Shown: positions 534 to 37,371 of the stretch, in pieces | Position numbering within the stretch: the first letter of the stretch is position 1 | Layout of the letters: each line of letters starts with the position of its first letter | DNA from: a virus | Lineage: Duplodnaviria > Heunggongvirae > Uroviricota > Caudoviricetes | Strand: one strand, 5' to 3' | Length of the DNA stretch: 37,371 nt | IMG/VR virus record: IMGVR_UViG_2579779116_000018 | Coordinates: 1 to 37,371 of that record | Program-made: the position numbers and the translations under genes | The notes under the pieces: generated by a model | Told to the model about the DNA's origin: nothing | What the model saw: only the letters and a program-made list of their open reading frames with translations | Databases searched by the model: none

Positions 534-549
534 GATATAAATATATCGT
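534..549. promoter_or_regulatory. 16 bp perfect palindrome CGATATAAATATATCG (possible operator)
   Basis: Perfect inverted repeat 30 nt upstream of the start of the 578-1624 gene; AT-rich core resembles a -10 element. Confidence 0.3.
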
Positions 550-1651: not shown

Positions 1652-3331
1652 ATGAAAACTAAGTTGTATTCATATATCCGCTTCTCGTCTATGAAGCAAG
1701 CGGATGGTAGTTCTTATGAACGCCAGAAGAGAACAGCGAAAGAGATAGCCGCAAAATATGATCTTGAGCTAGTTACAAGCTATCAGGATTTTGGTGTATC
1801 TGCATTCAAAGGGGCTAACAGTAGAACAGGTGCACTATCTCGCTTTCTGGATGAGATTGGTCGATCTGTTCCGGTTGGTAGCTGGCTGGTTGTGGAAAAC
1901 TTGGACCGTATCTCTCGCCAATCCATCATTGAAGCACAAGAGCTATTTCTCTCGATCATACGTAGGGGAATAACCATTGTCACTGGTATGGATGGGAAAG
2001 TGTATAGCCGCGAATCGGTTAATGCTAATCCCATCGATTTACTATTGAGTGTCATGTTGTTTGCGAGAGCTAACGAGGAAAGCCAGACTAAGCGCAATCG
2101 TACTAACTCAAGCGCACTGATTAAGATTAAGTCGCATCAAGAAAATCCCCAGAATCCGGCAGTGGCAATCGAGGAAGTTGGGAAGAATATGTGGTGGACG
2201 GATACCACTTCCGGTTATGTGTTGCCTCATCCTACATACTTCCCTGTTGTTCAGGAGATTGTGGAATTACGGAAGAATGGACGTTCAACCGCCGAAATAC
2301 TGGATCACCTTAACGAGACATATGCACCACCACCAGCAGTAAGCAACAAGAAGCATTCAAAATGGTCACGGGCAATGGTTGAAAGGTTGTTTCATACCCG
2401 CGCTTTGATTGGTATCAAGGAGGTCTCTGTCGATGGTGTTAACTATGAGTTAAAGGATTATTACCCTCGTGTTATTGATGATGCTACGTTCTATCACCTT
2501 AAGAAAAATATTGGTGCTAGAGCATGGAACTTTGGAGACAAGGAAGAAGTTAAACCGATCCCCCTGCTTAGTGGTATTGGCCTATTGAAATGTGATCATT
2601 GCGGTTGCGCTATGGTTAAAGTGAAGGGAACGAACAAACGTTCTGACCAGTATCGTTATACATGTGATGCGACCCGTTCACGTAGACTTGATTGCGAGCA
2701 TCCAAACTGGAGTTTTCGAGGTGATCAATTAGAGAAAGCTGTATTGCAATTGCTGGCTGATAAAATCTGGATTGCTGAGGACAAGGCTAATCCGGTTCCG
2801 GCGTTGAAAGTACAGGTTGATGAAATATCACGCAAGATTGATAACCTGATTGCCCTTTCTGCTATGACAGGAGCAACGAAGGAGCTAGCCGATCAGATTA
2901 CTACCCTCAATAGCGAGCGTGAAACACTCTACAATCAGATCAAGATGGCAGAAGAGGAAATGTATTCTGTTGACTCTCAAGGCTGGGAGAAGCTCGCAGA
3001 ATTTGATTTAGAAGATGTTTACAACGAGGAACGACTAAAGGTCCGGTTTAAGATTAAGCAAGCTCTAAAGCGGATCGGGTGTAGCAGGATTGACAGAAAC
3101 AAAAACTTGTTTGTACTGGAATACATCGATGGAAAGACCCAGAGAGTTGTAATAGAAAATTCAAGAGGAACGAGGAAAGGACAAATCTTTGTCGATTTGA
3201 AAACTATCAATGATAGGCAGATTCTGGAGAGTAACGGGCTTGTTCTGCATCCATGTTTAGACATGCTGACAGATAAGAACTGGAAACCAGAAGAGGAAAT
3301 ACCAGGTCCATTACAGGAATTTGGAATTTAA
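1652..3331 (+). CDS. large serine recombinase (559 aa)
   Basis: N-terminal resolvase-type catalytic domain (YSYIRFSSMKQ with candidate nucleophilic Ser), recombinase domain, Cys-rich zinc ribbon CDHCGC...YTCDATRSRRLDCEH, and C-terminal coiled coil: the typical large serine recombinase architecture. Confidence 0.9.
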   Translation: MKTKLYSYIRFSSMKQADGSSYERQKRTAKEIAAKYDLELVTSYQDFGVSAFKGANSRTGALSRFLDEIGRSVPVGSWLVVENLDRISRQSIIEAQELFLSIIRRGITIVTGMDGKVYSRESVNANPIDLLLSVMLFARANEESQTKRNRTNSSALIKIKSHQENPQNPAVAIEEVGKNMWWTDTTSGYVLPHPTYFPVVQEIVELRKNGRSTAEILDHLNETYAPPPAVSNKKHSKWSRAMVERLFHTRALIGIKEVSVDGVNYELKDYYPRVIDDATFYHLKKNIGARAWNFGDKEEVKPIPLLSGIGLLKCDHCGCAMVKVKGTNKRSDQYRYTCDATRSRRLDCEHPNWSFRGDQLEKAVLQLLADKIWIAEDKANPVPALKVQVDEISRKIDNLIALSAMTGATKELADQITTLNSERETLYNQIKMAEEEMYSVDSQGWEKLAEFDLEDVYNEERLKVRFKIKQALKRIGCSRIDRNKNLFVLEYIDGKTQRVVIENSRGTRKGQIFVDLKTINDRQILESNGLVLHPCLDMLTDKNWKPEEEIPGPLQEFGI

Positions 3332-3367
3332 GCGGCCTAAATCGACGTATAACGAGCTAAAACAGTT

Positions 3368-3396
3368 AAGGGGTACATTCGTACCCCTTTTTAATT
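3368..3396. terminator. bidirectional intrinsic terminator between convergent genes
   Basis: Perfect hairpin AAGGGGTAC-attc-GTACCCCTT followed by TTTTTAATTT; sits between the recombinase stop (3331) and the minus-strand gene stop (3405). Confidence 0.7.
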
Positions 3397-3404
3397 TAAT
3401 TGCA

Positions 3405-4580
3405 TTAGAGAGCGTTTAAGAGAGTATTAAAGTATTCATCCATTAAATCAGGATTGTTGTCATCAATACAGAAAAATTCCGGTTTATTGATGCCGTAGAA
3501 GTGAGTATGTAGCTTGAATGTATCGTCATCAAATACATCTTTCGGAGATACCCACATATTAGCCTCGTCCGGTTGATTGGTTAGGTAGTCATAAACCAGT
3601 TGCTGTAAGTGCGGCAACTCATCAATAGTCAGAGTTTCCGACCATCCATCCTTGAAATCTTTGTAGGGTGCTGCATGAGTCTTGAAGCGTTGTTTTACTT
3701 CATGCTCTAAATCGGCAGCTTTCCAACCATCCTCAAACTCATGAGTAAAGATTAAGCGGTGAGTGAAGTTGCTCTTTCTGGTTTGTTCTCTCATTCGTTC
3801 TTCTGGTTTTCGGGTAGTGATTCCAAATTTAATAAATTTGTCATCTAATAATTGAATGTAGAAACTAGCCTTACCCTGATAAGTCCGGTTAGACAGTTGC
3901 ACCAGTTGGTCTTTAATGCAAAGCGGACAAGTGAAAGAATCAGCACATCTTAAATGAGATTCCCATTCGTGGTTATGTGACTTGCAATAGGTTTTAAATT
4001 TAACATCCTTTAGGTGTGGGGTGTTTATGGTAAATCCTTTGAAGATGTAAGGTGTAGTCTCGCAACGTGCATTGATGATTGTCTCTTTGTCCTTAATAAC
4101 TTCATCAAAAGTCTTGCCACTTCTTACCCGTTGGGATTTTTCAGCCATACAGATTTTACAATCAAAATCAAAATCATCCTTGAGAGCATGTAATAGAGAT
4201 GGCGTCATGATTTGATTGTGTATAGGACACAAAACACGGGCTTTTGTCTTGTTGCGCCCTTTCCATTCTCCTTGCCATCCTAGAAACTTCTTTCCCTTCT
4301 CATTACAACGAGATTCCATTTTCAACCATACAGCCTTTTCAGTCTGGAATAACTCACCCCCGTTAGTATCTTCCAGTTTGCGTAATTTGTAGTCCTTATA
4401 TTCTTGTGTATCTAAATTGTAGATTCGAAAGTAAGTGTGATTACCCTTCCACGGTAGGATAAATCCACCAAATACGAAAGCAGGTTCCAGTTTAGCGATG
4501 ATTCGTTGTTGGTACTCTTCCGGCGATAAACCGCGAGTTTTCTTAACAAAAGGAATTTCGGCAGCGTAAGCAAGTTTCAT
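3405..4580 (-). CDS. Zn-ribbon-repeat / T5orf172 domain protein, paralog B (391 aa)
   Basis: Start moved from ORF-track 4691 to the internal ATG at 4578-4580, which has RBS AGAGGAAACTACT upstream and gives an N-terminus (MKLAYAAEIPFVKKTRGLSPEEY) matching the paralogs. WKG/C...CP.C repeats and C-terminal FYIQL...KFGITTRKPEERMREQ. Confidence 0.75.
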   Translation of the reverse strand: MKLAYAAEIPFVKKTRGLSPEEYQQRIIAKLEPAFVFGGFILPWKGNHTYFRIYNLDTQEYKDYKLRKLEDTNGGELFQTEKAVWLKMESRCNEKGKKFLGWQGEWKGRNKTKARVLCPIHNQIMTPSLLHALKDDFDFDCKICMAEKSQRVRSGKTFDEVIKDKETIINARCETTPYIFKGFTINTPHLKDVKFKTYCKSHNHEWESHLRCADSFTCPLCIKDQLVQLSNRTYQGKASFYIQLLDDKFIKFGITTRKPEERMREQTRKSNFTHRLIFTHEFEDGWKAADLEHEVKQRFKTHAAPYKDFKDGWSETLTIDELPHLQQLVYDYLTNQPDEANMWVSPKDVFDDDTFKLHTHFYGINKPEFFCIDDNNPDLMDEYFNTLLNAL

Positions 4581-4639
4581 AGTAGTTTCCTCTAAAATAA
4601 TAAGTTCACTACTATTTATTAGAGAAAATTGTCTTACTA

Positions 4640-4667
4640 TTGCATTCTCTATCTGAATGTGTATAAT
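4640..4667 (+). promoter_or_regulatory. putative sigma70 promoter for the 4735 gene
   Basis: TTGCAT (4640-4645), 16 bp spacer, TATAAT (4662-4667), in the divergent intergenic region 4581-4734. Confidence 0.4.
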
Positions 4668-4734
4668 ACGCGACCCTAAATCCCAAACCAACCATATTGA
4701 GGTTATGCCTATAAGTTAAAAAAGTGAGGTCTAT

Positions 4735-5304
4735 ATGATTCCAGTAATGGCTAAAGATATTGTTTTTACTCCTAAATCCTCCCGTGCTGTAACTCCATCG
4801 GCATTAGAACAACGCATTCTGACTCACATCAAAGATAAGGACTTACCATTAGTCTTTCATGGCTTTCTGGGTGAGTTTAAAGGGCTTCATTCAAGAATTG
4901 CTCTAACATGTACCCGATGCGGTAATAGAGCCGACAAATCAGCTACTAACCTGCTTAATGAAGGTAAACGATGTGTTTGCTTCAATAGTGACTACTTTCA
5001 ATATAAAGCGGGTGTGCCTTATCTCTATGTAATGAAGTCTGGGGATATTGGTAAATTTGGTGTTACAAAGTCAATCATCAAGCGACGTGTTAATCTGGGT
5101 GTACGCAATCCCGGTCATAACTTTGATATTGTCTTTGCTGGTGAAATGCCATCAATGAAACATGCTTTAGCCACTGAAAGAGCAATAAAGAGATTACTGG
5201 ATGTGGGTATAGGCGGGATTGAATACGGCAAAACTGAAACATTCCACTACTGCAATAAATCACTAAACAATATAAAGAATATTGCAAGTGTGGAGTGGAA
5301 CTAA
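4735..5304 (+). CDS. Zn-ribbon / T5orf172 domain protein, paralog C (189 aa)
   Basis: RBS GTGAGGT before ATG; one GEFKG...C..C...RCVC repeat and C-terminal PYLYV...GKFGVTKSIIKRR T5orf172-like segment. Confidence 0.75.
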   Translation: MIPVMAKDIVFTPKSSRAVTPSALEQRILTHIKDKDLPLVFHGFLGEFKGLHSRIALTCTRCGNRADKSATNLLNEGKRCVCFNSDYFQYKAGVPYLYVMKSGDIGKFGVTKSIIKRRVNLGVRNPGHNFDIVFAGEMPSMKHALATERAIKRLLDVGIGGIEYGKTETFHYCNKSLNNIKNIASVEWN

Positions 5305-6794
5305 TGCAAGATATTAAAATTCATTTTCAAGATTACAGTTTCGTTAAGGTTGATTGCTCTCCTTCTATCGGAATGGAATTAAGAGATTATTTCTCTTTTG
5401 AGGTTGAAGGGGCTAGGTTTAGCCCCCGATACAAGTATTCAGGCTGGGATGGACGAATAAGACTGTTTACGCATGAGAATACCCTACCAATTGGACTATT
5501 AAAAACGTTGGGTGTCTTTGTTAAAAATATGGGGTATTCAGTCTGGATTGACCCGCGATTGCTTGAGAAGGAAGATGTAACCAAAGAACAGATTGATTCA
5601 TGGATTGATTCTTTAGAAGTGTATTCCGGTAGCAATAAAATCAATCCTTACTGGTATCAGCGTGAAGCAGTCTTTCAGGGTATTCATAATCGCCGTAGAA
5701 TGCTGGTTCTTCCTACCAGTGCGGGTAAGTCATTGATTGCTTGTATGCTGTCTCGTTGGTACTTAGAGCATTACACCGGAAAGGTGTTAATCATTGTCCC
5801 GACTACATCGCTAGTGGTTCAAATGAGGGATGATTTCATCGATTATCGGTTATTCCCTTATGAAGCAATCCATACAATGATGAGTGGTAGCGGGAAACAT
5901 CCGGGAGACAGGTTAATCACGGTTAGTACCTGGCAATCAGCTTGCAAGATGCCTCCTGAATGGTTCAAACAATATGGAATGTTGATAGTTGATGAATCGC
6001 ATAAGGCTAGTGCCAAAAATATTACCAATATCATTAACGGAATGAATCATTGCCAATTTAAGATCGGCATGACTGGTTCCCCGAAAGAATCAAAGTGCCA
6101 TTTAATGCAGTATGTCGGGCTTTTCGGTGATATTTCCAAGATCGTGAGTATTGACCGCCTGATGGAAGAAGGGCAGGTGACAAAACTGAAAATTAACTGT
6201 CTTTTCCTTCGTTATACCGATGAGGAATGTAGCGCGGTTAAGGGGAGAGAATATGCGGAAGAGATCAAGTATATTACATCTAACCCACGACGTAATAAGT
6301 TTGCTTGCAATTTGGCGCTAAAACTCGCTAAGAAGGGCGAAAACGTATTCCTGATGTTCCGCAATACTAAGCACGGAAAACTTATGTATGACGCGTTACA
6401 GAAGGTACACGACAAGGTTTATTATATTGACGGTGGAGTTAAGACAGAAGAACGTGATGAATTTAAGAAAATGGCGGAGGGTGACACCGGGATCATTTGT
6501 GTTGCGTCTTATGGTGTGTTCTCTACTGGTGTTTCAATTAAGAATTTGCACCATGTTATTTTCGGTCATCCAGTGAAGGAATCAACTATCGTTCGTCAGA
6601 GTATCGGTCGTGCATTGCGTAAACATGGTTCTAAGGATATTGCAACGGTCTGGGATCTTATAGATCATCTGTGTATATTCGGTCGTAACGGAAAAATCAA
6701 GCATAAAAATTATGCGGTAAAACATGCACTTGAGAGAATCCGCTATTATCTAACCGACAAGTTCAGATATGCAACTAAAACAATTGCTATATAA
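5304..6794 (+). CDS. SF2 DEAD/DEAH-box DNA helicase (about 496 aa)
   Basis: Walker A LPTSAGKS, DESH box (LIVDESHKAS), motif III MTGSPK, motif VI VRQSIGRALR. Start taken as ATG 5304 (RBS GGAGTGG) rather than the ORF-track GTG at 5295. Confidence 0.85.
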   Translation: MQDIKIHFQDYSFVKVDCSPSIGMELRDYFSFEVEGARFSPRYKYSGWDGRIRLFTHENTLPIGLLKTLGVFVKNMGYSVWIDPRLLEKEDVTKEQIDSWIDSLEVYSGSNKINPYWYQREAVFQGIHNRRRMLVLPTSAGKSLIACMLSRWYLEHYTGKVLIIVPTTSLVVQMRDDFIDYRLFPYEAIHTMMSGSGKHPGDRLITVSTWQSACKMPPEWFKQYGMLIVDESHKASAKNITNIINGMNHCQFKIGMTGSPKESKCHLMQYVGLFGDISKIVSIDRLMEEGQVTKLKINCLFLRYTDEECSAVKGREYAEEIKYITSNPRRNKFACNLALKLAKKGENVFLMFRNTKHGKLMYDALQKVHDKVYYIDGGVKTEERDEFKKMAEGDTGIICVASYGVFSTGVSIKNLHHVIFGHPVKESTIVRQSIGRALRKHGSKDIATVWDLIDHLCIFGRNGKIKHKNYAVKHALERIRYYLTDKFRYATKTIAI

Positions 6795-13075: not shown

Positions 13076-13846
13076 TTATTTCTTGAAGTCTTCGTACATT
13101 CTACGAAGGTTGTATTTTGGATGGCCTAAGCTAACCATGATTTGACTCAATTTAACCGCGCCGGGTTTACCGTTTTCAATCCACACGCGCCGGATTTCAT
13201 CGTAATGCTGCCAACAGCCTTGACCTTTAGCAATACGTATAGAATGTGTATATTTCTTGGTAGAGCTTTCTGGTCGCTTGCGCCCTAGATGTGCTTTTCT
13301 AATCTTTTCGCGTGTTTCTTCTGATACAGGTTTACCATAACGGGGGTTATTCTCTCCACGAGTAGCAGCCGATAATTTAGCTAATATTTCTGGGTTTGTT
13401 ACTTTTTTGCCTCTCATTGCACTAGGTTTACCATAGCGATGGTTCTTTTCACCCATTCGAGATGCCGACATTTTAGCTCTAGATTCCGGTGTATGTTTTC
13501 TTCCGTAAAAAGGATGATTTTCACCACCATCAAAACCACCGACACCACCAGGAGCTATATTAAGACATACACCACGCCCCCATTTTTCGCGTGCTGCCTC
13601 CACTAACAGGATTTCACATTCAAACGCTTCCTCGGCAGTATCAAACAATTTTGAACGAACAACTTCAAATTCATATATCGGGGTTTCTGATTCTTTATTT
13701 TTACGCTTCATCATTTTAATAACTTTACCCGATCCCACATATCCATCGTCTAGATTTGTGGTTGTTCTTTTTCCGACGTAATGATAGATTTTACCAGAGC
13801 GATTAGATTTAATAGTGGTGTGATAAACGTAATGGAATTTTTGCAT
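13076..13846 (-). CDS. GIY-YIG homing endonuclease with NUMOD3-type repeats (256 aa)
   Basis: N-terminal HYVYHTT...SGKIYHYVGK...GYVGSG (GIY-YIG module) and three copies of N-x-P-x-Y-G-K/R-x-x-S/T-x-E-T/S-R-x-K-I/M (NUMOD3-like DNA-binding repeats); own RBS; inserted between minor tail genes. Confidence 0.85.
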   Translation of the reverse strand: MQKFHYVYHTTIKSNRSGKIYHYVGKRTTTNLDDGYVGSGKVIKMMKRKNKESETPIYEFEVVRSKLFDTAEEAFECEILLVEAAREKWGRGVCLNIAPGGVGGFDGGENHPFYGRKHTPESRAKMSASRMGEKNHRYGKPSAMRGKKVTNPEILAKLSAATRGENNPRYGKPVSEETREKIRKAHLGRKRPESSTKKYTHSIRIAKGQGCWQHYDEIRRVWIENGKPGAVKLSQIMVSLGHPKYNLRRMYEDFKK

Positions 13847-28838: not shown

Positions 28839-30743
28839 TTAGAACGATGTTACCCAGCTACGGCCTCTATTTGGGCGTCTGGCGATGTTTTGACGTTGTG
28901 GTCGTGTGATTGGCTTAGTTTCTTCGATTTGCTCGTCAGATTGCGATTTAGGAGCTTCTACAGGTTCTTCTGGTTCACGGTTCAAACTATCTTTGATGGC
29001 TTCGAGTTTTTCCCATGACATTTTATTGAGTACATGACGAGAAGCAGCATAGGAATAAGCCAGGCAGTCGAGAGCCTCGTTTCGTTGCTGACCAACTTTT
29101 ACCCAACGTGTGGTATTACCCTGCCGTTTCAACTGTTCAGATAACAATTGCTCGCAATAGTCATCAGGAACGTCACCAATCTGGAAGACCGTATGAGGAT
29201 CGCTGTCTCTCAAGTTCCGGTTAATCATTTCACGGATCATCGTCTTAAGGTTGTTTACGCCCAGAATTTTGAGAGTAAAACCGCCCGTTCTTGTGTCCTT
29301 AGCCGGAAGGATTGGAGCATCAGCATTACTTGCGCCTTTAATGGCGCATAGGTTTTGCCACCTAGTGCAAAAACGGTAGATCACGTTTGTAGCTCGTCCG
29401 TTCGATGAGTCCACGAAAGCAGATAACATCGGGATTCGTTCACCGGATCGGGTATAGAATTTCGCTTTCAGGAAGTTATAAAGCTGGTCATATGCTGGCG
29501 ATTCGTGGCGTTCGCAGTTCACATCATAGAATGATCGGTGATCAACTACGCATATCCCCTTACGAGAGATACCCAGCAAGGTAGATTCCAGACGGTCTTT
29601 TTGCTGGTCAACTCCACCTACCAGAGCCAGTACATCATCAGGAATATTGTCTAGGCTAATATCAGTTTTCAGCGTTTCCAGTTCGTCGGCTGTGCGGTCT
29701 TCGTTAAGATCATCGAAGGTTTCGCCTAAGACAGTGTTATAGAACGTTGCCAGGGACATATTCGCGTAGCTATCAGCAAAGTCCACCACACACGCACGGA
29801 TAGAACTAAACGGAGACATAAGGCGGTTAGCATGAAAACCGATTACTTCCGCATTTGGTTCGGTGGCGACCCATTCTCCCTGAGCAACAGCACGGAGGCG
29901 ATCCCCTTCGGTCCAATCGGTTTCACATTCAGGGCAACGGTAAACGGCTGTATCTGGGTTGGGTAATGATTTACCGTTAATCGTATGCCAATCGAAATGT
30001 ACGTTACTCCATTCCATTACGTGCTTGTGTCCGCAATGCTGGCAAACGACATGATATTTTCTCTTATCCGAGAGTTCCCATTGTTGGTTAATCGCCCCAT
30101 CACGAGCGGTTGGAGTGGAAGCAATTACGATCCTTGCATCTTCCCCGAAAGTGGTTGCGCGTTGTTCCGCTAGCTGGATCGGGTTCCCTTCGTCTGACTC
30201 ATCAGCCGCATCAACTTCATCAAGAATAATCAAAGGGAGTGTTTTACCGCGAAGATGTGACGGACTATTCAACGACATGAAATACATAAACGATCCGTTA
30301 CGAAGCTGAATAATCGATGAGTTGTTAACGGCATTGCGATCTGATTTGTCGGTGATCATCGCTTTTAATTCTGGCGTTGCCTCTAATACTGGCTTCACCT
30401 TACCAGCGATCCAAGAATTTAGTTCCCTAACGTTACTTTGCAAGACCCCAATATTAGTAGGGTTACTCGCGATCCGATGGAAGATAATTCCGTTAAGAAT
30501 CATGGTCTTACCCAACTGCGCCGAACATTTAAACACAATTTTTCTACGGTCTTCGGTGATCGCGTCCATCATTCCACGTTGGAAGGGATGCAATTTAATT
30601 AGCGATCCGGCTTTAACACCATCGGTTGCAACTACATTAGCCTCTACCCATTCGCTAGGTTTCATGGCTTTAGGTGGGCGAATTGCAGCAGAGATATTTC
30701 TGAGAATCTTTTTTAATTTTGCCTTATTAGAAATCAGTTTCAT
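28839..30743 (-). CDS. terminase large subunit, lambda gpA-like (634 aa)
   Basis: HPFQRGMMDAI, Walker A-like KCSAQLGKTM, Asp-rich LIILDEVDAADE, Cys cluster CQHCGH...CPEC; first gene of the minus-strand late operon. Confidence 0.9.
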   Translation of the reverse strand: MKLISNKAKLKKILRNISAAIRPPKAMKPSEWVEANVVATDGVKAGSLIKLHPFQRGMMDAITEDRRKIVFKCSAQLGKTMILNGIIFHRIASNPTNIGVLQSNVRELNSWIAGKVKPVLEATPELKAMITDKSDRNAVNNSSIIQLRNGSFMYFMSLNSPSHLRGKTLPLIILDEVDAADESDEGNPIQLAEQRATTFGEDARIVIASTPTARDGAINQQWELSDKRKYHVVCQHCGHKHVMEWSNVHFDWHTINGKSLPNPDTAVYRCPECETDWTEGDRLRAVAQGEWVATEPNAEVIGFHANRLMSPFSSIRACVVDFADSYANMSLATFYNTVLGETFDDLNEDRTADELETLKTDISLDNIPDDVLALVGGVDQQKDRLESTLLGISRKGICVVDHRSFYDVNCERHESPAYDQLYNFLKAKFYTRSGERIPMLSAFVDSSNGRATNVIYRFCTRWQNLCAIKGASNADAPILPAKDTRTGGFTLKILGVNNLKTMIREMINRNLRDSDPHTVFQIGDVPDDYCEQLLSEQLKRQGNTTRWVKVGQQRNEALDCLAYSYAASRHVLNKMSWEKLEAIKDSLNREPEEPVEAPKSQSDEQIEETKPITRPQRQNIARRPNRGRSWVTSF

Positions 30744-30828: not shown

Positions 30829-31431
30829 ATGCTAATTAATCAGCAACAAAGAGATGAATTAGAATTAGCCTTGTCTTGTACCGATCATGAATATCGTTTA
30901 CCAGTTAAGCATAAGCATTTAAAAACCGACTACACAACATCTGGCTTTAGTCGTGAGGAAGCGAAAGAGATTTTAATCGAGTTGTATCGCGATCATGGGT
31001 ATACCGATATTCATAACTTCTTTAAGAAGCATCGCACATCACAGACAGAGTTTCGGAGAGTCCGAGATTGGTTTGATTTTGATATCAAGCGTTATTATCG
31101 CATTGATGACGGTCCTATCTATAGGTTGCAGTGGAAGCCGATCCGAGAAGTGTTGAAACAGAAGAGATTGAATCACGCTATTACACGCTATCGTAACGTG
31201 GCTTTCAAGAAAGGCTATGGTGATACAAGGGAATTGTTTGTAGAACTCGCTAACGTGCGTTATAGCCACTATTACAACGATCCTAAAGGGTTCTTTGAAG
31301 TGCTTCGCAAGGTTGATATAAGTCGGGGGACATACTATTCACGGTTGAAGAAGTACGGGATTAAGGCAGAGTTCTTTATGTCGGTTGACGATGGAGAACT
31401 TTTTCCGATAAAATGTAAGTCCTCTAAATAA
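30829..31431 (+). CDS. hypothetical protein with C-terminal DNA-binding-like motif (200 aa)
   Basis: RBS AAAGGGGGTT; C-terminal RGTYYSRLKKYGIKAEF resembles the motif in 31467-31694 and 34911-35093. Confidence 0.6.
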   Translation: MLINQQQRDELELALSCTDHEYRLPVKHKHLKTDYTTSGFSREEAKEILIELYRDHGYTDIHNFFKKHRTSQTEFRRVRDWFDFDIKRYYRIDDGPIYRLQWKPIREVLKQKRLNHAITRYRNVAFKKGYGDTRELFVELANVRYSHYYNDPKGFFEVLRKVDISRGTYYSRLKKYGIKAEFFMSVDDGELFPIKCKSSK

Positions 31432-31466
31432 AGGTGAACATTCACTTTAATTTGGAGGAAGTAACT

Positions 31467-31694
31467 ATGACTACTAAAGCTACTCGCGGTCGCCCTGCCC
31501 GTTTTAACGCTGAACAGATGGCTGATATTGCCTACGCTTACTATACAGCGGATCGTGGTAAGGAAGCGAAAGAACAGATTCTTAGTGAACATGGGATCTC
31601 AATCGCCCAATTCTATAAGAATATGAAGAAGTTAGACATTAAATTCTATGTTCAGATCGGTGATGGTCAGATCGTAGAAGCAACAGGTTTTTGA
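31467..31694 (+). CDS. small putative DNA-binding protein (75 aa)
   Basis: Start at ATG 31467 with strong RBS GGAGGAAG; N-terminal TRGRPARF (AT-hook-like) and C-terminal IAQFYKNMKKLDIKF motif. Confidence 0.55.
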   Translation: MTTKATRGRPARFNAEQMADIAYAYYTADRGKEAKEQILSEHGISIAQFYKNMKKLDIKFYVQIGDGQIVEATGF

Positions 31695-31869: not shown

Positions 31870-32700
31870 TCAGATCCCAAAATCAACAAGGGAAATTACG
31901 TTACCTGATTCACGAATCTGTTTAGCAGCTTTGTTTTGAATCAGAATAGTGTTATTTGGCTGCGGTAGTTTAAGAGTTGCTTTTTGTTCTTCTTCCAGAA
32001 TACCCAATTCAACCAACACAGGAAGAACATCAACAGTAAACTCAAGTTGGTAGTGAGCATTCATGCGGCAGAAAGACAGAGAAGAGTCATTAGCAACATA
32101 CCCACACGGCTTGTTATTTTCATCGTAGACGCGCTCAATGTAGCCAGCAGTACGCAAGGCCGTCAGTGCTTCTTTAACCTTCGTAGCGCCCTTTTTAGCG
32201 CCTAACAGACGGGTCATTGAATGGCTATCTACGGATTTGCGAACATGAAGTTCAATCAGCTTTTTATTTTCGCGAGTTTTCTTTAATGCCAGTTCGATCC
32301 AGTCTGTTTCTTCAAAGTCTGCATACGGGTTAACGGCTAAACGTTCCTGACGCAGTTTTTCATTTTCTTCTTTCAGTCGCTTCCATTCCTGAATAACAAC
32401 CATTCGACGCTTAACATCGTAACCAGTGACAAGAGTCAGCGTCATTTCTTCGTCTAAGTGATATACTGGTTCTTTAACAGCATATCCTAAGTTATTGATT
32501 CTCTCGACAAATTCAGTTTTGAGCTGATCGATAATACCTAAAGATTCGTACATTTCGCGAATATCGCGCATTACATTGCTGTGCTTCTTATCGGTAAATT
32601 CAGCGATCTGACGAGAAGACATGGTCAGCGGTTTGGTGTTATCAACAACCAGAGACACGGAAGCAGTTTTAACAGTATTCATAGTAGTAACAGTATTCAT
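31870..32700 (-). CDS. Rha-family phage regulatory protein (276 aa)
   Basis: N-terminal LTMSSRQIAEFTDKKHSNVMRDIREM matches the Rha signature; RBS AAGGGGAATT; gene begins with an 18 nt direct repeat (MNTVTT-MNTVKT). Confidence 0.8.
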   Translation of the reverse strand: MNTVTTMNTVKTASVSLVVDNTKPLTMSSRQIAEFTDKKHSNVMRDIREMYESLGIIDQLKTEFVERINNLGYAVKEPVYHLDEEMTLTLVTGYDVKRRMVVIQEWKRLKEENEKLRQERLAVNPYADFEETDWIELALKKTRENKKLIELHVRKSVDSHSMTRLLGAKKGATKVKEALTALRTAGYIERVYDENNKPCGYVANDSSLSFCRMNAHYQLEFTVDVLPVLVELGILEEEQKATLKLPQPNNTILIQNKAAKQIRESGNVISLVDFGI

Positions 32701-32803
32701 AGTAAAAATTCCCCTTAAACGGTTTAGTGATTGATTCTCCTGTTTTTAACTGTCCACACGCCAACGGCGCGCGGAACAATTTTATTTATAAGAAGTTTTT
32801 ATC

Positions 32804-33072: not shown

Positions 33073-33525
33073 TTACAGCATATCTAAGCCTTCATCGTAA
33101 CCGTAGAAGCCACCGTGAGAAGAAAAACAGATTGGAGCGTAGTCTTCGTCTTCCTCATCTTCTTCATCTTGTTCTGGGGCTTCCTGAGCGGGTTGTTTAC
33201 CATAATCAGCCATAATCTGGTCAAGATCGGCGATCCCATAGTAAGAGCCTAAATCAACGTCATATTCACGAACATCAAACGGCAGGTCATCACGAACAAT
33301 AATTGCCGGAATGTTGTTGTATTGTTCACGACCTTCATCAGTAAAGCAGTCTACGATCACCGTAGGGCGACCATTACGTTTAAAAGCATAGAAAGCAGTT
33401 GAGAAATTGGAGTCTTCGGAATGACGAATGATGTTATAACCACGATTAGCGAAAACATGCATCATAGCCAGATTATCATCATGGTTCAGACCCAGAAGTA
33501 CGAAAGGAGTTTTAGTATTGATCAT
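33073..33525 (-). CDS. acidic hypothetical protein (about 150 aa)
   Basis: Start placed at ATG 33523-33525 with RBS AGAGGATACCACT; C-terminal acidic run EEDEEDED; first leftward gene leaving the control region. Confidence 0.6.
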   Translation of the reverse strand: MINTKTPFVLLGLNHDDNLAMMHVFANRGYNIIRHSEDSNFSTAFYAFKRNGRPTVIVDCFTDEGREQYNNIPAIIVRDDLPFDVREYDVDLGSYYGIADLDQIMADYGKQPAQEAPEQDEEDEEDEDYAPICFSSHGGFYGYDEGLDML

Positions 33526-33725
33526 AGTGGTATCCTCTAAAAGAAAGTGAATCAAACAAAGTACACTAGTATTTATAACGAGAATTTTTTATCTATTTGG
33601 AAGTGATTAGATTCAGTCGGCTTCGCCTCCTTCATAGATTTTGATTAAATCATCATCAAAACGAAGAAGTATCTTTAGAATATAAGAATCTTTCTTTTGG
33701 AGAAATTATAATCAGGAAGCAATTT

Positions 33726-34057
33726 AGCAACCGAAGGTTGCAATCCCGAAGGGATACCAATACCTTTCATGATCATTAAAGTGATCTAGAATCATCTAGT
33801 AACCAGTTAACTACTATTATCTTCAAAGTGATTATTACTATCTTTCTAGAATCAGTTAGTAACTAGTTTAAAATCCCTTTCAAGAAAATCCTTTCAGAAG
33901 TGATTCTCGATGCCACGCAGTGGCGTCGCAGACGTTTGAGAGTGAGCGAAGCGAGCGAGCAAACTAGTTAATTCCTTCTAAGACCATCTAGTATCATCTA
34001 GTTTAAATTAGTGTTACTAGAAGTAATTGGTTAGCGCTTCGCGCAGTCGGGCTACGC
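33726..34057. repeat. three pairs of short tandem hairpins interleaved with CTAG-rich AT-rich repeats
   Basis: Pairs at 33726-33753 (GCAACCgaaGGTTGC + ATCCCgaaGGGAT), 33911-33934 (GCCACgcaGTGGC + CGTCgcaGACG), 34032-34057 (GCGCttcGCGC + GGGCtacGCCC), separated by repeats such as TCTAGAATCATCTAGTAACCAGTT. Confidence 0.4.
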
Positions 34058-34203
34058 CCTCCTAATATCTTTTTGGTTATTTGTTGTTTTTGGTTTTACA
34101 CATGAGCGTAGCGAATGTGTTATATAATATCTATGCACGCCCGATCCCCGCTTTTGCCCCTCACTAAGTTAATGTTTTATAAAGAGTTTTTCTTACCAAT
34201 CCT

Positions 34204-34393
34204 TTTCGGGGGCAAATTTCAGGGGCAAAAATTAGATTTTCAGGGGCAATTATTGGCATTTCAGGGGCAAAAATGAGGGGCAAAATCACCGTTTCCCAGA
34301 ATTTCAGGGGCAAAAATAGTAGGTTTCAGGGGCAAAAATGGGATAGTGAAATCTAGGGGGATTTTGGTTCAGGGGCAAAATTCAGGGGCAATT
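34204..34393. repeat. iteron-like direct repeats, consensus TTCAGGGGCAAAA (about 10 copies)
   Basis: Copies at approx 34204, 34218, 34238, 34260, 34274, 34304, 34324, 34352 (degenerate), 34369, 34381, irregularly spaced; all same orientation; immediately upstream of the promoter at 34461. Confidence 0.7.
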
Positions 34394-34460
34394 TTCATAG
34401 TGTAGGGCTAGTGTAGGTTTGAAAGTCCTTTCTTGACACTATGTAGGTTTGGTGCTATAC

Positions 34461-34490
34461 TTGACAATTCGAGAAAAAATGTGGTATAAT
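34461..34490 (+). promoter_or_regulatory. strong sigma70 promoter with extended -10
   Basis: TTGACA (34461-34466), 18 bp spacer, TGGTATAAT (34482-34490). Confidence 0.6.
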
Positions 34491-34727
34491 ATTTGTATTG
34501 AAAGTGAAAATTTACCGATTTTCCTTCCTATTGTTATCACCGTGTTAAATTGTTATATGTTTGTGAAGATTTGGATCTGAGAGAAAATCTTGTAACAAAT
34601 CTTTACAATTCATAGCTCAATTAATGCTCACCGCTTTAGCAAAAAGTGCTATGCAATTTTCTAAATTGATTGAATAAACATCAATTTGGTTAATTCGTGT
34701 TCTTCTCTTTAGCAATTCGTGCTGCGG

Positions 34728-34780
34728 TTTAACACATTTAACACGTCTGATAACATCTGAATAACATTTTAACATATCTC
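34728..34780 (+). repeat. five phased TAACA repeats at about 10-11 bp spacing
   Basis: TTAACACA, TTAACACG, GATAACATC, AATAACATT, TTTAACATA in the same orientation, one per helical turn. Confidence 0.4.
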
Positions 34781-34817
34781 TGTTATAAATACATATATAA
34801 GAGATAAATGTGAGGGG

Positions 34818-34847
34818 TTGAAAAATAAAATACAATCCCCATATAAA
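34818..34847 (+). promoter_or_regulatory. possible second promoter
   Basis: TTGAAA (34818-34823), 18 bp spacer, TATAAA (34842-34847); weaker match. Confidence 0.3.
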
Positions 34848-34854
34848 TAATAGT

Positions 34855-34875
34855 GAGCGGTTAACGCTCTTTTTT
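34855..34875 (+). terminator. intrinsic terminator / attenuator within the leader
   Basis: GAGCG-gttaa-CGCTC hairpin followed by TTTTTT, 35 nt upstream of ATG 34911. Confidence 0.5.
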
Positions 34876-34910
34876 AAGAAATCATTAATCCAGATTTAGG
34901 AGGATTTAAG

Positions 34911-35093
34911 ATGGCACGACCTGTTAAGTTCACTCGTGAAATCGTTTTAGAAATGGCAAAGCGTTATTTTGAACTGACACCTGATGTAGTGATGGGTGAA
35001 TGGTTTAAAGGTGAAGGTATTGATCAATCAACCTTCCACAAACTCTTAAAGAAGTATGACATTAAAGTAAAGATTACCGCAGAGGTGTGGTAA
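34911..35093 (+). CDS. small putative DNA-binding protein (60 aa)
   Basis: Strong RBS AGGAGGA; MARPVKF N-terminus and STFHKLLKKYDIKVKI C-terminal motif, paralogous to 31467-31694. Confidence 0.6.
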   Translation: MARPVKFTREIVLEMAKRYFELTPDVVMGEWFKGEGIDQSTFHKLLKKYDIKVKITAEVW

Positions 35094-35206
35094 TAACCTT
35101 TCACTGAGAATTATATGATGGCTTTAAAAAAGAAAAAGCCTCCCTTGTTGCAGCAAAGGAGGCTTGAAATGAACAATTAAAACTAACTTTCCACGGAGTA
35201 TTTATA

Positions 35207-36148
35207 ATGTTATTTTCCGCTAACTTTTTCACTAACGAAGTAACCAACGCTAAAGCAGTTATCAAATTTGGCACCGAAGCAAACAAGAAGATTCAGCCGA
35301 AAGTTGTTGCTCATGTTTCCTTTGCACAGCAGAAATCCGCTTTCGCTGGCTTTAAAGCACATCGTGAAGCACTGATCGCGGCTGGCTTTGGTGTTGACGG
35401 TAAACTGCCTAACGGCATTCGTAAAGCAATCGACCGCGTTAAACCTGCTAAAGACGTTGCAGTAGACCACATCGTTACTTTTACCGTTAAGAACTCTTCT
35501 GAACTGTTCCACCTGGTTATTGCTGGTGATACTGCTATCGTTTCCGCTCCTAACATGGATTTTCAGGATACCGCTGATTGCCAGATCACCTTCGGTCGTC
35601 GTAAAGAAGTTACCGGAAAAGCTAAACTGAACTTCACTAAATCCGGCAATCCTTACTTTGCTGTTTTCTTTAACAGCCACGCTACCGAAAAAGAAGTTGT
35701 AGAACTGGTTGCTTATGAAGGTGAAGAGAAAGAACGTATTGAATCTTGCGAAGCATTTCTGGAACTGGAAGCACAGGTGAATGCTGTTTCTCCGGTTGTT
35801 GAAGATCGCTTTGCTGCACTGGAAGCACAGATCGCAGAACTGAAAGCTGCACTGGAAGAAAAAGACCAGATTATCGAAGCACAGAAAGCTGAGATTGAAG
35901 AACTGAAAGCTAAAGAAGTTGCTCCGGTGGCAGTAGTTGAAAACGCGGCTGATGAGGCCGCAAATGATGAAGTAGAAGTGAAAATCGATGTGATGCGTGA
36001 TCCGATGGCTGCACTGCAATTACTTCGTTCTTTTAAGGGCAAATCTCATTTTTCTAGTGATGTAGAAGATGAGGAAGAAGAACAGAAACGCAATGCTGCA
36101 ATGCTTCATGATGAAATGTACGGTACTAACTTTTCTTACTGCCAATAA
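35207..36148 (+). CDS. abundant hypothetical protein with coiled coil and acidic C-terminus (313 aa)
   Basis: RBS GGAG; codon usage visibly different from the rest of the window (CTG, GAA, AAA, GCT, CGT-rich, as in highly expressed E. coli genes); heptad-like EAQIAELKAALEEKDQIIEAQKAEIEELKAKE; followed by terminator. Confidence 0.75.
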   Translation: MLFSANFFTNEVTNAKAVIKFGTEANKKIQPKVVAHVSFAQQKSAFAGFKAHREALIAAGFGVDGKLPNGIRKAIDRVKPAKDVAVDHIVTFTVKNSSELFHLVIAGDTAIVSAPNMDFQDTADCQITFGRRKEVTGKAKLNFTKSGNPYFAVFFNSHATEKEVVELVAYEGEEKERIESCEAFLELEAQVNAVSPVVEDRFAALEAQIAELKAALEEKDQIIEAQKAEIEELKAKEVAPVAVVENAADEAANDEVEVKIDVMRDPMAALQLLRSFKGKSHFSSDVEDEEEEQKRNAAMLHDEMYGTNFSYCQ

Positions 36149-36171
36149 AAAAAGGGACTCCGAAGAGTCCC
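36146..36171. terminator. bidirectional hairpin terminator
   Basis: GGGACTC-cgaa-GAGTCCC flanked by AAAAAAA on the plus side (U-run for the minus-strand transcript) and TAGTAAGTTT on the other. Confidence 0.6.
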
Positions 36172-36245
36172 TAGTAAGTTTAGGTTAGGTTGCACAACAA
36201 AGATGAGGTTATAATGAACATAATGCTACATTATCTAGTAAAGCC

Positions 36246-36273
36246 AGAAAAATAACCGCCCCTTTCGAGGCGG
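36246..36273 (-). terminator. second minus-strand terminator (tandem)
   Basis: Minus-strand CCGCCUC-gaaa-GGGGCGG (one G-U) followed by UUAUUUUUCU. Confidence 0.5.
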
Positions 36274-36431: not shown

Positions 36432-36716
36432 TTATTTAGTCTGTTTGAAAACAAACGTTAAAAATTCGATTAAGCAATATACCCAGCATACAGTAAGCAG
36501 TAGATGCATAGAAATAGCCGGATGGAAGTTAAAAAGTGTCATACTAACTAGACCAACAATATAAGAAATCCCTTCGACAATTAAAGCTAGACTAGAAAAT
36601 GCAACAAACGCACCTAAGAATAATTCAGCACGTTCTCGATTTTCGGTTCCGAGTTTATAAGCAGAAATAACAGCCAGAATAGTAATGATGACAGCATAGG
36701 TAATAAAAGTAGCCAT
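36432..36716 (-). CDS. small integral membrane protein (94 aa)
   Basis: RBS AGAGGATATAAAACT; three predicted hydrophobic helices; function unknown, holin-like size. Confidence 0.55.
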   Translation of the reverse strand: MATFITYAVIITILAVISAYKLGTENRERAELFLGAFVAFSSLALIVEGISYIVGLVSMTLFNFHPAISMHLLLTVCWVYCLIEFLTFVFKQTK

Positions 36717-36761: not shown

Positions 36762-36810
36762 TAGACGTTGACCCGTTCAACATCTTTCATACATTTATTT
36801 ATAACGCGTT

Positions 36811-37371
36811 TTAAGACACATCAAATTCATCGTCTTCTTCTGGTTCTTGTTCTTGTTCTTCCGGTTCATCCATTAATGGTAATTCTTCTTCCTCGTCTTC
36901 TCCCAAATCTGCATTTTCGAACAAGTCCCCTACTTCATTTAAACGACGCTCGATAATCTCCCTTAGCTTATTCTTTAATGTTTTCTGGTCAGTGGCAGAT
37001 TCGAGAATTTCTAAAGCGTCGATTGTGGCGATCTGCAAAATAGTCTGCTTCACTTTCCCGCAGTATTCCGCTAGTTCCTGTTCTACATACCCGACCGGAA
37101 TCAGGAGATTCATAGCTTCCTGGTTCTCTCGTTCGGCTGCATCCGCTAATGCTCTTTCCCGGCGCAACTTCTCAACATCTATTTGTTCTTTTATAGAAGT
37201 TTCTTTGAGCGGATTAATGATGTTCTTCAAGACCCATTCTGTCCCTTCTTTGGCTGGTACGCGTCGTGTATTGGTATTAAATGGCATTCCTCGTTCTTGC
37301 CATTTCTTAGCGGCGTTAATTGTATAGCCGTATAAGCGGGAAATTTCTGTAAGGGTTAATTCTTCTTTCAT
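36811..37371 (-). CDS. Nu1-like DNA-binding protein, candidate terminase small subunit (at least 186 aa)
   Basis: N-terminal LTLTEISRLYGYTINAAKKWQERGMPF resembles the lambda Nu1 winged-helix segment (IRTIQNWQEQGMPV); acidic C-terminus. The ATG coincides with the last 3 nt of the window, so the true 5' end is not verifiable. Confidence 0.6.
   Translation of the reverse strand: MKEELTLTEISRLYGYTINAAKKWQERGMPFNTNTRRVPAKEGTEWVLKNIINPLKETSIKEQIDVEKLRRERALADAAERENQEAMNLLIPVGYVEQELAEYCGKVKQTILQIATIDALEILESATDQKTLKNKLREIIERRLNEVGDLFENADLGEDEEEELPLMDEPEEQEQEPEEDDEFDVS

Follow-up and report, generated by a model that had tools for sequence, protein, structure and literature searches.

The 37,371-nucleotide (nt) stretch analysed here in full, hereafter the window (IMG/VR virus record IMGVR_UViG_2579779116_000018), is a temperate siphovirus prophage whose integration site is ycdX of E. 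coli and whose family has not been studied before. Two of its genes, encoding proteins of 313 and 150 amino acids (aa), diverge across a non-coding region of 1,385 bp (33526-34910). This region carries an array of short repeats, and our comparative analyses suggest that the 313-aa protein probably binds it directly, with its N-terminal domain setting the specificity. As an overall explanation, we tentatively propose that the region is a control and replication module of the phage, in which the 313-aa protein would act as a highly expressed, modular array binder. The initial annotation had placed both open reading frames (ORFs) correctly, as a divergent pair with the lengths and strands given below, and had proposed them as immediate-early genes for host takeover or anti-defence. 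The features on which the argument first depends are the following.

33073..33525, minus strand: p150 gene, with the ATG as in RefSeq, encoding 150 aa with an isoelectric point (pI) of 4.1
33610..34125: left half of the non-coding region, whose conservation extends over the lineages irrespective of array type, as seen in its sequence, its repeats and alignments with Salmonella, Proteus and Providencia relatives
34154..34391, plus strand: array of boxes of the form (T)TCAGGGGCAA(AA), the proposed binding site of the 313-aa protein
34911..35093, plus strand: p60, 60 aa, of the (G)RPxKF… type, first gene of its operon and always directly upstream of the 313-type gene
35207-36148, plus strand: gene of the 313-aa protein, second in the operon, after p60

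The evidence for array binding comes from the comparison of 30 related loci, 28 with a single cassette and 2 with a double cassette, a set to which a profile of the small terminase subunit (TerS) had contributed 25 loci. The N-domain type found at the 313 position matched the sequence of the boxes without exception in 28/28 single-cassette loci, which were distributed over four combinations.

Window-type N-domain (51-100% identity), array of 4-9 AGGGGCAA boxes: 14 loci
Providencia-type N-domain (66-100% identity), array of 6-9 GTGTAGG boxes: 12 loci
L132-type N-domain, array of 8 MMGGACAAA boxes: 1 locus
Proteus-type N-domain, array of 12 CTAGGGAT boxes: 1 locus

All these arrays are located about 0.5 kb upstream of p60, in the same position in all lineages and beside a conserved hairpin and T-rich block. 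The E. coli members of the window-type and Providencia-type groups have TerS proteins that are 89-99% identical, and the alleles of p60 (54-100% identity) and p150 (60-96%) are spread over both groups independently of the array. Since these alleles assort independently of the box type, the array follows neither TerS, p60 nor p150, and both TerS and p60 were discarded as array binders. Because the N-domain and the box co-vary while the flanking genes assort independently, we read the 313-aa protein as a modular array-binding protein. The 28 matches are not independent events, as the loci are related, but the mosaic combinations speak against simple shared ancestry. These natural cassette swaps constitute a specificity experiment run by evolution. 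An array paired with its probable binding protein in an unstudied prophage family is undescribed and constitutes the main finding. Two E. coli prophage loci, L266 and L274, carry two tandem N-domain-plus-coil proteins and two distinct arrays each (2071-4101 and 4950-5310 in L266; 2640-4874 and 5770-6210 in L274), in which a TCCCCG-type array occurs together with an ATACC-type or a GATGTACAAG-type one; the co-variation extends to both of these loci.

In the window, the array contains nine direct boxes (TTCAGGGGCAAAA), starting at 34207, 34220, 34241, 34262, 34275, 34305, 34327, 34370 and 34383, two of them with one mismatch, and one inverted box, also with one mismatch (34154-34162). The direct boxes are spaced by 13, 21, 21, 13, 30, 22, 43 and 13 bp. 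When up to one mismatch was allowed, 10 out of the 18 matches in the window fell in the array (5.4 expected), while CAGGGGCAA without mismatches was found in the array and nowhere else in the window. The 14-mer TTCACGGACAAAAA, scanned across viral contigs, produced chance single matches only. The left block, the boxes and their spacing were retained in a Salmonella relative even though its coding flanks were just 36-78% identical. The left half of the intergenic region contains TCTAGAA..TTAGTAAC repeats and GC-rich mini-hairpins of the GCGAAGC type, with GNA triloops (GCGAAGC, GCGTAGC and CACGCAGTG), set in AT-rich DNA. Within it, the block 33967-34062 (…GGTTAGCGCTTCGCGCAGTCGGGCTACGCCC) is kept in all lineages, from E. 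coli to Providencia, and a T-rich tract (34064-34100) adjoins the array. For the mini-hairpins and the conserved block of 33610-34125, candidate roles are those of a cos site, an origin component or a signal for single-strand initiation. An Rfam search of the region returned nothing, and no DnaA boxes were found, for which reason a DnaA-dependent origin was rejected.

The architecture of the 313-aa protein agrees with a modular organisation. Its N-terminal domain (residues 1 to about 165) is basic (pI 9.6) and beta-rich, and the remainder of the protein is acidic. An AlphaFold2 model built on a 12-sequence alignment predicted a beta-rich N-domain plus two helices for residues 1-155 (per-residue confidence, pLDDT, of about 70-92), followed by a long helix (182-236) corresponding to an acidic coiled coil and by a disordered acidic tail; the C-terminal end carries the conserved motif AAMLHDEMYGTNFSY. 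Comparisons between N-domain types with hhalign detected homology in the coil and C-terminal part only (96% probability) and none between the N-domains, and the C-terminal module occurs in at least two interchangeable forms. An exhaustive HMMER search of 1.8 billion cluster representatives yielded only about three full-length clusters, two of them additional ones with 50% and 34% identity; two matches to giant repeat proteins were judged spurious. In a metagenomic protein (P0200), ORF6N, a known DNA-binding domain, is joined to the same coil, which is 72% identical to that of the window protein over 46 residues, and is followed by a C-terminal module that some members of the 313 family also have. 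Regulators of the KilA-N, ORF6N and Bro-N families are similarly built, with DNA recognition at the N-terminus, a coiled coil and a C-terminal module that can be exchanged, but the 313-type N-domains match none of those Pfam families and are mutually unrelated. Neither the 313-aa nor the 150-aa protein had a family match in Pfam, PHROGs, NCBIfam or PADLOC, where weak coiled-coil noise was all that appeared, and neither matched the PDB by sequence profile or by fold search. Specifically, the 313-aa protein lacks the ANT, AntA, pRha, ORF6N and KilA-N domains that mark antirepressors of the P22 Ant and Rha types (Pfam and PHROGs), and it has no homology, in sequence or fold, to known initiators (lambda O, PF04492; RepA/RepE winged-helix Reps). 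No OB-fold match was found that would place it with single-stranded DNA-binding (SSB) proteins despite its basic N-domain and acidic tail, and sequence-specific rather than SSB-like binding is favoured because the N-domain co-varies with the array. If the proposed pairing is true, these would be new DNA-binding domains with cognate sites, and hence possible orthogonal protein-DNA pairs. A broader and rather doubtful proposal is that they represent undescribed exchangeable specificity cassettes, in which unrelated N-domains of novel fold are set on a common coil and C-terminal chassis. Each would be paired with a separate array, of 8-12 boxes and in a constant location, would be made at ribosomal-protein levels and would define replication, immunity or incompatibility types among enterobacterial prophages that are otherwise nearly identical, one type controlling another through promoter boxes or double cassettes.

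Codon usage supports abundant production of both proteins. The codon adaptation index (CAI), with weights built from 30 real E. coli genes for ribosomal proteins, EF-Tu, EF-G and rpoA, was 0.718 for the 313-aa gene, the highest of the 37 ORFs in the window (median 0.39). The reference genes reached 0.54-0.84 and ordinary host genes mostly 0.33-0.51, so that the comparison with host genes put forward in the initial annotation located the 313-aa gene inside the ribosomal-protein range. When the protein was rewritten in phage-wide codon usage, the expected CAI was 0.48±0.025 (z=9.6) and 0/5000 simulations reached the observed value. The 150-aa gene ranked third with 0.593 (expected 0.435±0.037, z=4.3). 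The tail tube gene (0.69, second in the window) and the major capsid gene (0.578) were optimised as well; the earlier statement that the codon usage of the 313-aa gene is unlike the rest of the window is therefore overstated, although the codon bias itself is real. The 313-aa gene has a GC content of 43% and a third-position GC content (GC3) of 0.35, like the remainder of the phage, and its GC3 is low because A/T-ending optimal codons are preferred. Variants at the 313 position had CAI values of 0.61-0.79 in E. coli and Salmonella loci and 0.57 in a Providencia locus, and p150 homologues had 0.52-0.67 while the neighbouring TerS had only 0.25-0.39; the bias is thus conserved in every relative of both genes. 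The codon bias is translational selection inside a low-GC phage, across the whole family, and not a sign of host origin, because the tail tube and capsid genes are also optimised and the GC3 is 0.35. The suggestion of recently acquired host sequence does not hold either in view of the phage-like GC and GC3 and of homologues confined to this prophage family. Very high expression, the other option of the initial annotation, is the best reading of the bias, and both genes are very probably highly expressed. A 269-aa antisense ORF at 35210-36019 was dismissed as an artefact of the codon bias. An origin or a switch explains this extreme optimisation poorly; it may reflect rapid turnover or a stoichiometric coating or spreading from the array, a mode of action to which codon optimisation of a site-specific DNA-binding protein may point.

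High abundance would also suit a virion or assembly protein, that is, a scaffold, a decoration protein or a head fibre whose codon bias reflects copy need. The CAI of the 313-aa gene is level with that of the tail tube and above that of the capsid gene, the protein is acidic in composition and contains a long coiled coil, and its coiled-coil region had a weak PHROG match to a head maturation protease (E=0.009). Nevertheless, this explanation is highly improbable. What the N-domain swaps with is an array of DNA repeats rather than the capsid genes, the capsid gene already has a fused protease/scaffold region, the 313-aa gene is on the opposite strand, within regulatory DNA that in relatives contains LexA-like boxes, and its coil and C-terminal module are common to a protein of the ORF6N regulator type. 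A scaffolding or decoration class was also rejected on the grounds that the gene lies outside the late operon and that the N-domain swaps with the DNA repeats independently of neighbouring genes.

The operon of p60 and the 313-aa gene is surrounded by several putative control elements.

34400..34449, plus strand: three GTGTAGG/ATGTAGG boxes that overlap the tandem promoters or directly precede them and correspond to the main-array box of phages with the other N-domain type
34433..34490, plus strand: two tandem sigma-70 promoters, with 11/12 and 12/12 consensus positions and a TG before each, facing the p60-313 operon
34855..34875, plus strand: small hairpin and T-run (attenuator or terminator-like) at the leader end, just before the p60 ribosome-binding site, in all lineages
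35136..35165, minus strand: 12-bp hairpin and minus-strand T-run in the gap that separates p60 from the 313-aa gene; intrinsic terminator of leftward, antisense transcription
35199..35207, minus strand: TTATAAATA, overlapping the spacer between the Shine-Dalgarno (SD) sequence and the ATG of the 313-aa gene, candidate -10 for the antisense RNA
36153-36172 and 36256-36273, minus strand: two terminator-like hairpins that would shield the 313-aa gene from leftward transcription from TerS and p94 (a 94-aa protein gene)

The tandem promoters are kept in E. coli relatives with the same leader type, and an untranslated leader of about 370 nt separates them from p60. We read p60 as a small helix-turn-helix (HTH) DNA-binding protein. 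It is paralogous to the product of an 86-aa gene at 31434-31694 (E=3e-6; (G)RPxKF…GI…F.K..KK.DIK), the C-terminus of a 200-aa protein (30829-31431) resembles this pair by eye, and the three proteins appear to form a small HTH-like family. The terminator hairpin on the minus strand was present in 7/7 lineages examined, with compensatory changes. In addition, the SD-to-ATG spacer of the 313-aa gene, GGAGTATTTATAA, which reads TTATAAATA on the minus strand, was conserved even where the downstream coding sequence was unrelated. On account of this conserved terminator and the conserved -10-like motif, a cis-antisense RNA of about 65 nt directed against the 313 leader, of the sar or CopA kind, is predicted (35126-35207, minus strand), with a fold z of -3.6. 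The conserved antisense terminator together with the conserved leader attenuator argues for tight control of the dose. A comparable arrangement is found in the IncFII plasmid R1 (copB, CopA, repA), with a small regulatory gene, an antisense RNA with a strong hairpin opposite the next leader and a dose-sensitive DNA-binding protein of about 300 aa. The phage region differs from R1 in that its antisense RNA is predicted from the terminator and the -10-like motif, in the lack of CopB or RepA homology, and in being phage rather than plasmid DNA, with no match in 72,556 plasmids.

Exact copies of the motif TTATAAATA number five in the window, against 0.9 expected, and are confined to 32.7-36.8 kb: 32783-32791(-), 33570-33578(-), 34783-34791(+), 35199-35207(-) and 36796-36804(-). 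Copies are located 45-120 nt upstream of the start codons of Rha, p150, p60 and p94, with no recognisable -35 element. The motif resembles the T4 late-promoter core and may mark a phage-specific promoter class. Its shorter form TATAAATA is additionally present at 536-543(+) and 34842-34849(+). About half of the relatives carry paired LexA-like boxes in the leader (CTGT-N8-ACAG and CTGG-N8-ACAG). The window leader has no such box, and LexA control of the operon in the window itself was rejected for this reason. In the leaders of Salmonella loci there is a perfect sigma-54-type motif, TGGCAC-N5-TTGC, which the window leader lacks. The sites noted for these two kinds of motif are L003 (7365), L132 (about 5237) and, at -221/-203 from the p60 start, loci L253-L271. 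The immediate-early position claimed in the initial annotation for both genes is plausible for the 313 operon, as early expression by the host RNA polymerase, given its near-perfect sigma-70 promoters and the LexA-like boxes of its relatives; the 313-aa gene is, however, second in that operon, and no sigma-70 promoter was found for p150.

In the model that we favour, the basic N-domain would recognise about ten AGGGGCAA boxes at 34154-34391, the coiled coil would oligomerise the protein and the acidic C-terminal module would recruit partner proteins. The array and the adjacent T-rich and hairpin block would constitute a replication origin that the 313-aa protein recognises and organises. Its dose would be set by the sigma-70 promoters, the leader attenuator, p60 and the short antisense RNA ending at 35136-35165, while p150, transcribed oppositely from the other side of the region, would dock its C-terminal peptide on a partner. 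As the most likely reading, it is possible, with somewhat less than even confidence on our part, that the module is a phage origin together with the protein that recognises and organises it, under regulation resembling copy control. The origin is proposed because no other initiator is recognisable in the phage (there is only a UvsW-like helicase), because the T-rich and hairpin block adjoins the type-specific array, and because the division between N- and C-terminal parts mirrors that of lambda O. In lambda O and the iterons of ori-lambda, as in SPP1 G38P, a protein of about 300 aa has an N-terminal part that sets the direct-repeat array and co-varies among related phages. Lambda O also shares with the 313-aa protein an exchangeable C-terminal part that presumably contacts partners, an acidic linker and an AT- or T-rich tract beside the repeats. 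The two differ in sequence and fold, in the location of the array (upstream of the operon here, not inside the gene), in the number and irregular spacing of the boxes (about ten, at 13-43 bp), in the long coiled coil and the extreme codon bias of the 313-aa protein, and in that the origin activity is putative here. Several observations weigh against the proposed model. Codon usage at the level of ribosomal proteins is unusual for an initiator that occupies about ten sites, no DnaA boxes were found, and two initiator-origin pairs in one phage, as in L266 and L274, would be odd. An immunity or regulatory system would account at least equally well for the cassette polymorphism among near-identical prophages and for the other-type boxes at the promoters. 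Moreover, the co-variation between array and N-domain may be indirect, through a third, unseen specificity partner.

The main rival is accordingly an immunity or regulatory switch, in which the arrays are operator-like and the 313-type proteins act as type-specific repressors or as SOS-induced, antirepressor-like derepressors; we consider it a serious but unlikely candidate. As in heteroimmune phages, near-identical E. coli prophages (TerS 89-99%) carry alternative cassettes of N-domain and array. The arrays precede the promoters of the operon itself by a short distance. In the window-type operon, the consensus promoters are covered by other-type GTGTAGG boxes, through which cross-regulation among phage types may take place. 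The LexA-like box pairs in the leader of about half of the relatives and the absence of an identified CI-like repressor anywhere in the window point in the same direction, as does the order of small-protein gene, predicted antisense RNA and gene of about 300 aa, which mirrors arc-sar-ant. P22 immI has a strong near-consensus promoter, a small first gene, an intercistronic antisense RNA and a second gene of about 300 aa; in the window, the promoters, the gene order and a conserved antisense terminator are present, and the transcripts are predicted. The second gene of immI, Ant, is made in a burst. The Mu repressor c resembles the 313-aa protein as we read it in having an N-terminal DNA-binding domain, a coiled coil (leucine zipper) and a regulatory C-terminal tail, with many operator repeats that vary between heteroimmune relatives. 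In contrast, homology to Ant, Arc, Mnt, Mu c or the CI families is absent from the 313-aa protein. Ant binds a repressor protein and not DNA, and maintenance repressors are normally of low abundance and not codon-optimised, while the CAI of the 313 family is 0.57-0.79. Judging from the LexA control in relatives, lysogens would keep the operon silent, for which reason the 313-aa protein would not be a maintenance repressor, and the window's own-type boxes do not overlap its promoters. If either the replication model or the switch is true, an origin or a switch would be identified for a prophage family without a sequenced free-living representative.

In the second protein, p150, residues 4-110 form an alpha/beta domain, and the C-terminus is a disordered peptide of high conservation, DEDYAPICFSSHGGFYGYDEGLDML. 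The C-terminal 40 residues are predicted to be disordered; within them, residues 117-127 are the acidic run EQDEEDEEDED, and DY.P[IV].F…Y..GL.ML-COOH comes after it. The acidic C-terminal run described in the initial annotation is therefore present, though not terminal, as 23 more residues follow it and are the most conserved part of the protein. The tail has 14 acidic and no basic residues. Word-based searches detected p150 homologues in E. coli and Shigella prophages only (44-98% identity); a further one in a syntenic Proteus prophage is 34% identical, and the tail is invariant from E. coli to Proteus. In place of a sigma-70 promoter, the recurring motif was the one element found upstream of p150.

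33570..33578, minus strand: TTATAAATA, 45 nt upstream of the p150 start, which may be a promoter -10-like element

The fold topology of p150 is weakly similar to that of P-loop NTPases and kinases, and a Walker A motif (GxxxxGK[ST]) was absent from the alignment of 38 homologues. A conserved disordered tail is the signature of a docking peptide, and from its sequence we read p150 as an acidic adaptor, made in abundance, that would use its tail to dock on a partner. That this partner is a replication protein, for example the host helicase, is an unlikely suggestion made by analogy with lambda P and SPP1 G39P. G39P, like p150, joins a small folded domain at the N-terminus to a C-terminal tail that is natively disordered, and in G39P this tail is essential for function. 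T7 Ocr, for its part, is acidic like p150 and abundant by codon bias. Unlike any of these proteins, p150 ends in a conserved short aromatic peptide, GL(D/E/Q)ML-COOH, and it has no sequence or fold similarity to lambda P, G39P or Ocr.

The likeness to Ocr bears on the host-takeover or anti-defence function initially proposed, according to which one or both proteins would be immediate-early factors, p150 for example being a DNA mimic of the Ocr or ArdA kind that titrates a host enzyme. p150 is indeed very acidic (pI 4.1), codon-optimised and more variable than its neighbours (44-98% identity), and an early anti-restriction gene with strong codon bias has a precedent in T7 gene 0.3 (ocr). However, no positive evidence for such a function emerged, and we regard it as quite improbable. 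Neither protein matched defence or anti-defence models, Pfam, PHROG, NCBIfam, PADLOC or PDB entries, and p150 showed no homology or fold match to the Ocr and ArdA mimics. Conservation in p150 is highest in a short aromatic peptide, where a DNA mimic would call for a surface with a charge pattern. p150 was also rejected as variable cargo, since it belongs to the syntenic core of the lineage and its conservation reaches Proteus. As for the 313-aa protein, its co-variation with the array points to a cis-acting target on the phage DNA.

The region also lies between the two terminase genes, which raises the question of packaging.

28839-30743, minus strand: gpA-like large terminase subunit (TerL), start of the late operon
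36811-37371: Nu1-like TerS

TerL and TerS are 6 kb apart with genes of both strands between them, an odd arrangement for lambda-type terminases; the C-terminus of TerS is also acidic (…EEDDEFDVS). From TerL, the late operon continues on the minus strand with the portal, the protease-capsid fusion, the tail tube, the tape measure, the fibres and the endolysin. The intergenic region might hold cos, the GC-rich block being cosN-like and the arrays cosB-like, with the 313-aa protein as an abundant packaging accessory or recognition protein, resembling lambda gpFI or a site-specific helper of the Nu1-like TerS. Besides its place between the separated terminase genes, the region is the only large conserved non-coding block, and the high abundance of the protein suits a gpFI-like accessory. 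Contigs of three independent assemblies (L005, L006 at position 1; L040) end in or beside the array; these ends may reflect assembly trouble from co-resident related prophages or a physical DNA end, and the former can account for them. However, different array types occur with TerS proteins that are 89-99% identical, so that the arrays are not TerS sites, and the 313-aa gene, which does not belong to the late operon, has sigma-70 consensus promoters to drive it. Altogether, a packaging role appears very improbable.

The syntenic slot is common to all homologues and consists of TerL … Rha, p150, the intergenic region, p60, the 313-type gene, p94 and TerS. The same slot was found in Salmonella, Proteus and Providencia prophages, mostly integrated in ycdX too. 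Near-identical DNA was present in 64 out of 5,426 complete E. coli genomes and was chromosomal in every case. In strain BS74R-D, the element splits ycdX and all genes of the region are annotated as 'hypothetical protein'. If true, the present reading would provide a function for two such proteins in about 1% of complete E. coli genomes and in prophages of Salmonella, Shigella, Proteus and Providencia. Among 50,697 phage records and 72,556 plasmids, tblastn and megablast revealed neither homologues of the two proteins nor a similar element. The TerS profile found no relative among GTDB species representatives, and a literature search on ycdX prophages and on the RefSeq accessions returned nothing relevant. 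Compared with the integrated BS74R-D prophage (L001 24655-25748), the window is short by about 0.7 kb at its right end, where two small genes and attR are missing, and both window ends (1 and 37371) coincide exactly with gene boundaries. Other genes of the prophage mentioned above or adjoining the tail operon are listed here.

1652-3331: large serine recombinase
5295-6794: UvsW-like helicase
31870-32700: Rha protein, as a separate gene

Three CapR/T5orf172 (GIY-YIG-like) genes and a homing-endonuclease-like gene in the tail operon were also noted (578-1624, 3405-4691, 4735-5304 and 13076-13846). A relative in BS74R-D of the homing-endonuclease-like gene inserted in the tail operon is annotated as having a NUMOD3 domain, and a related 218-aa gene is inserted beside p150 in Proteus and Providencia prophages, which points to heavy homing-endonuclease traffic in these prophages. 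Finally, p94 (36432-36716), located between TerS and the 313-aa gene, is a conserved protein with terminator-like hairpins on its flanks. Its hydrophobicity suggests three transmembrane segments, and it could be a holin or a superinfection-exclusion protein.

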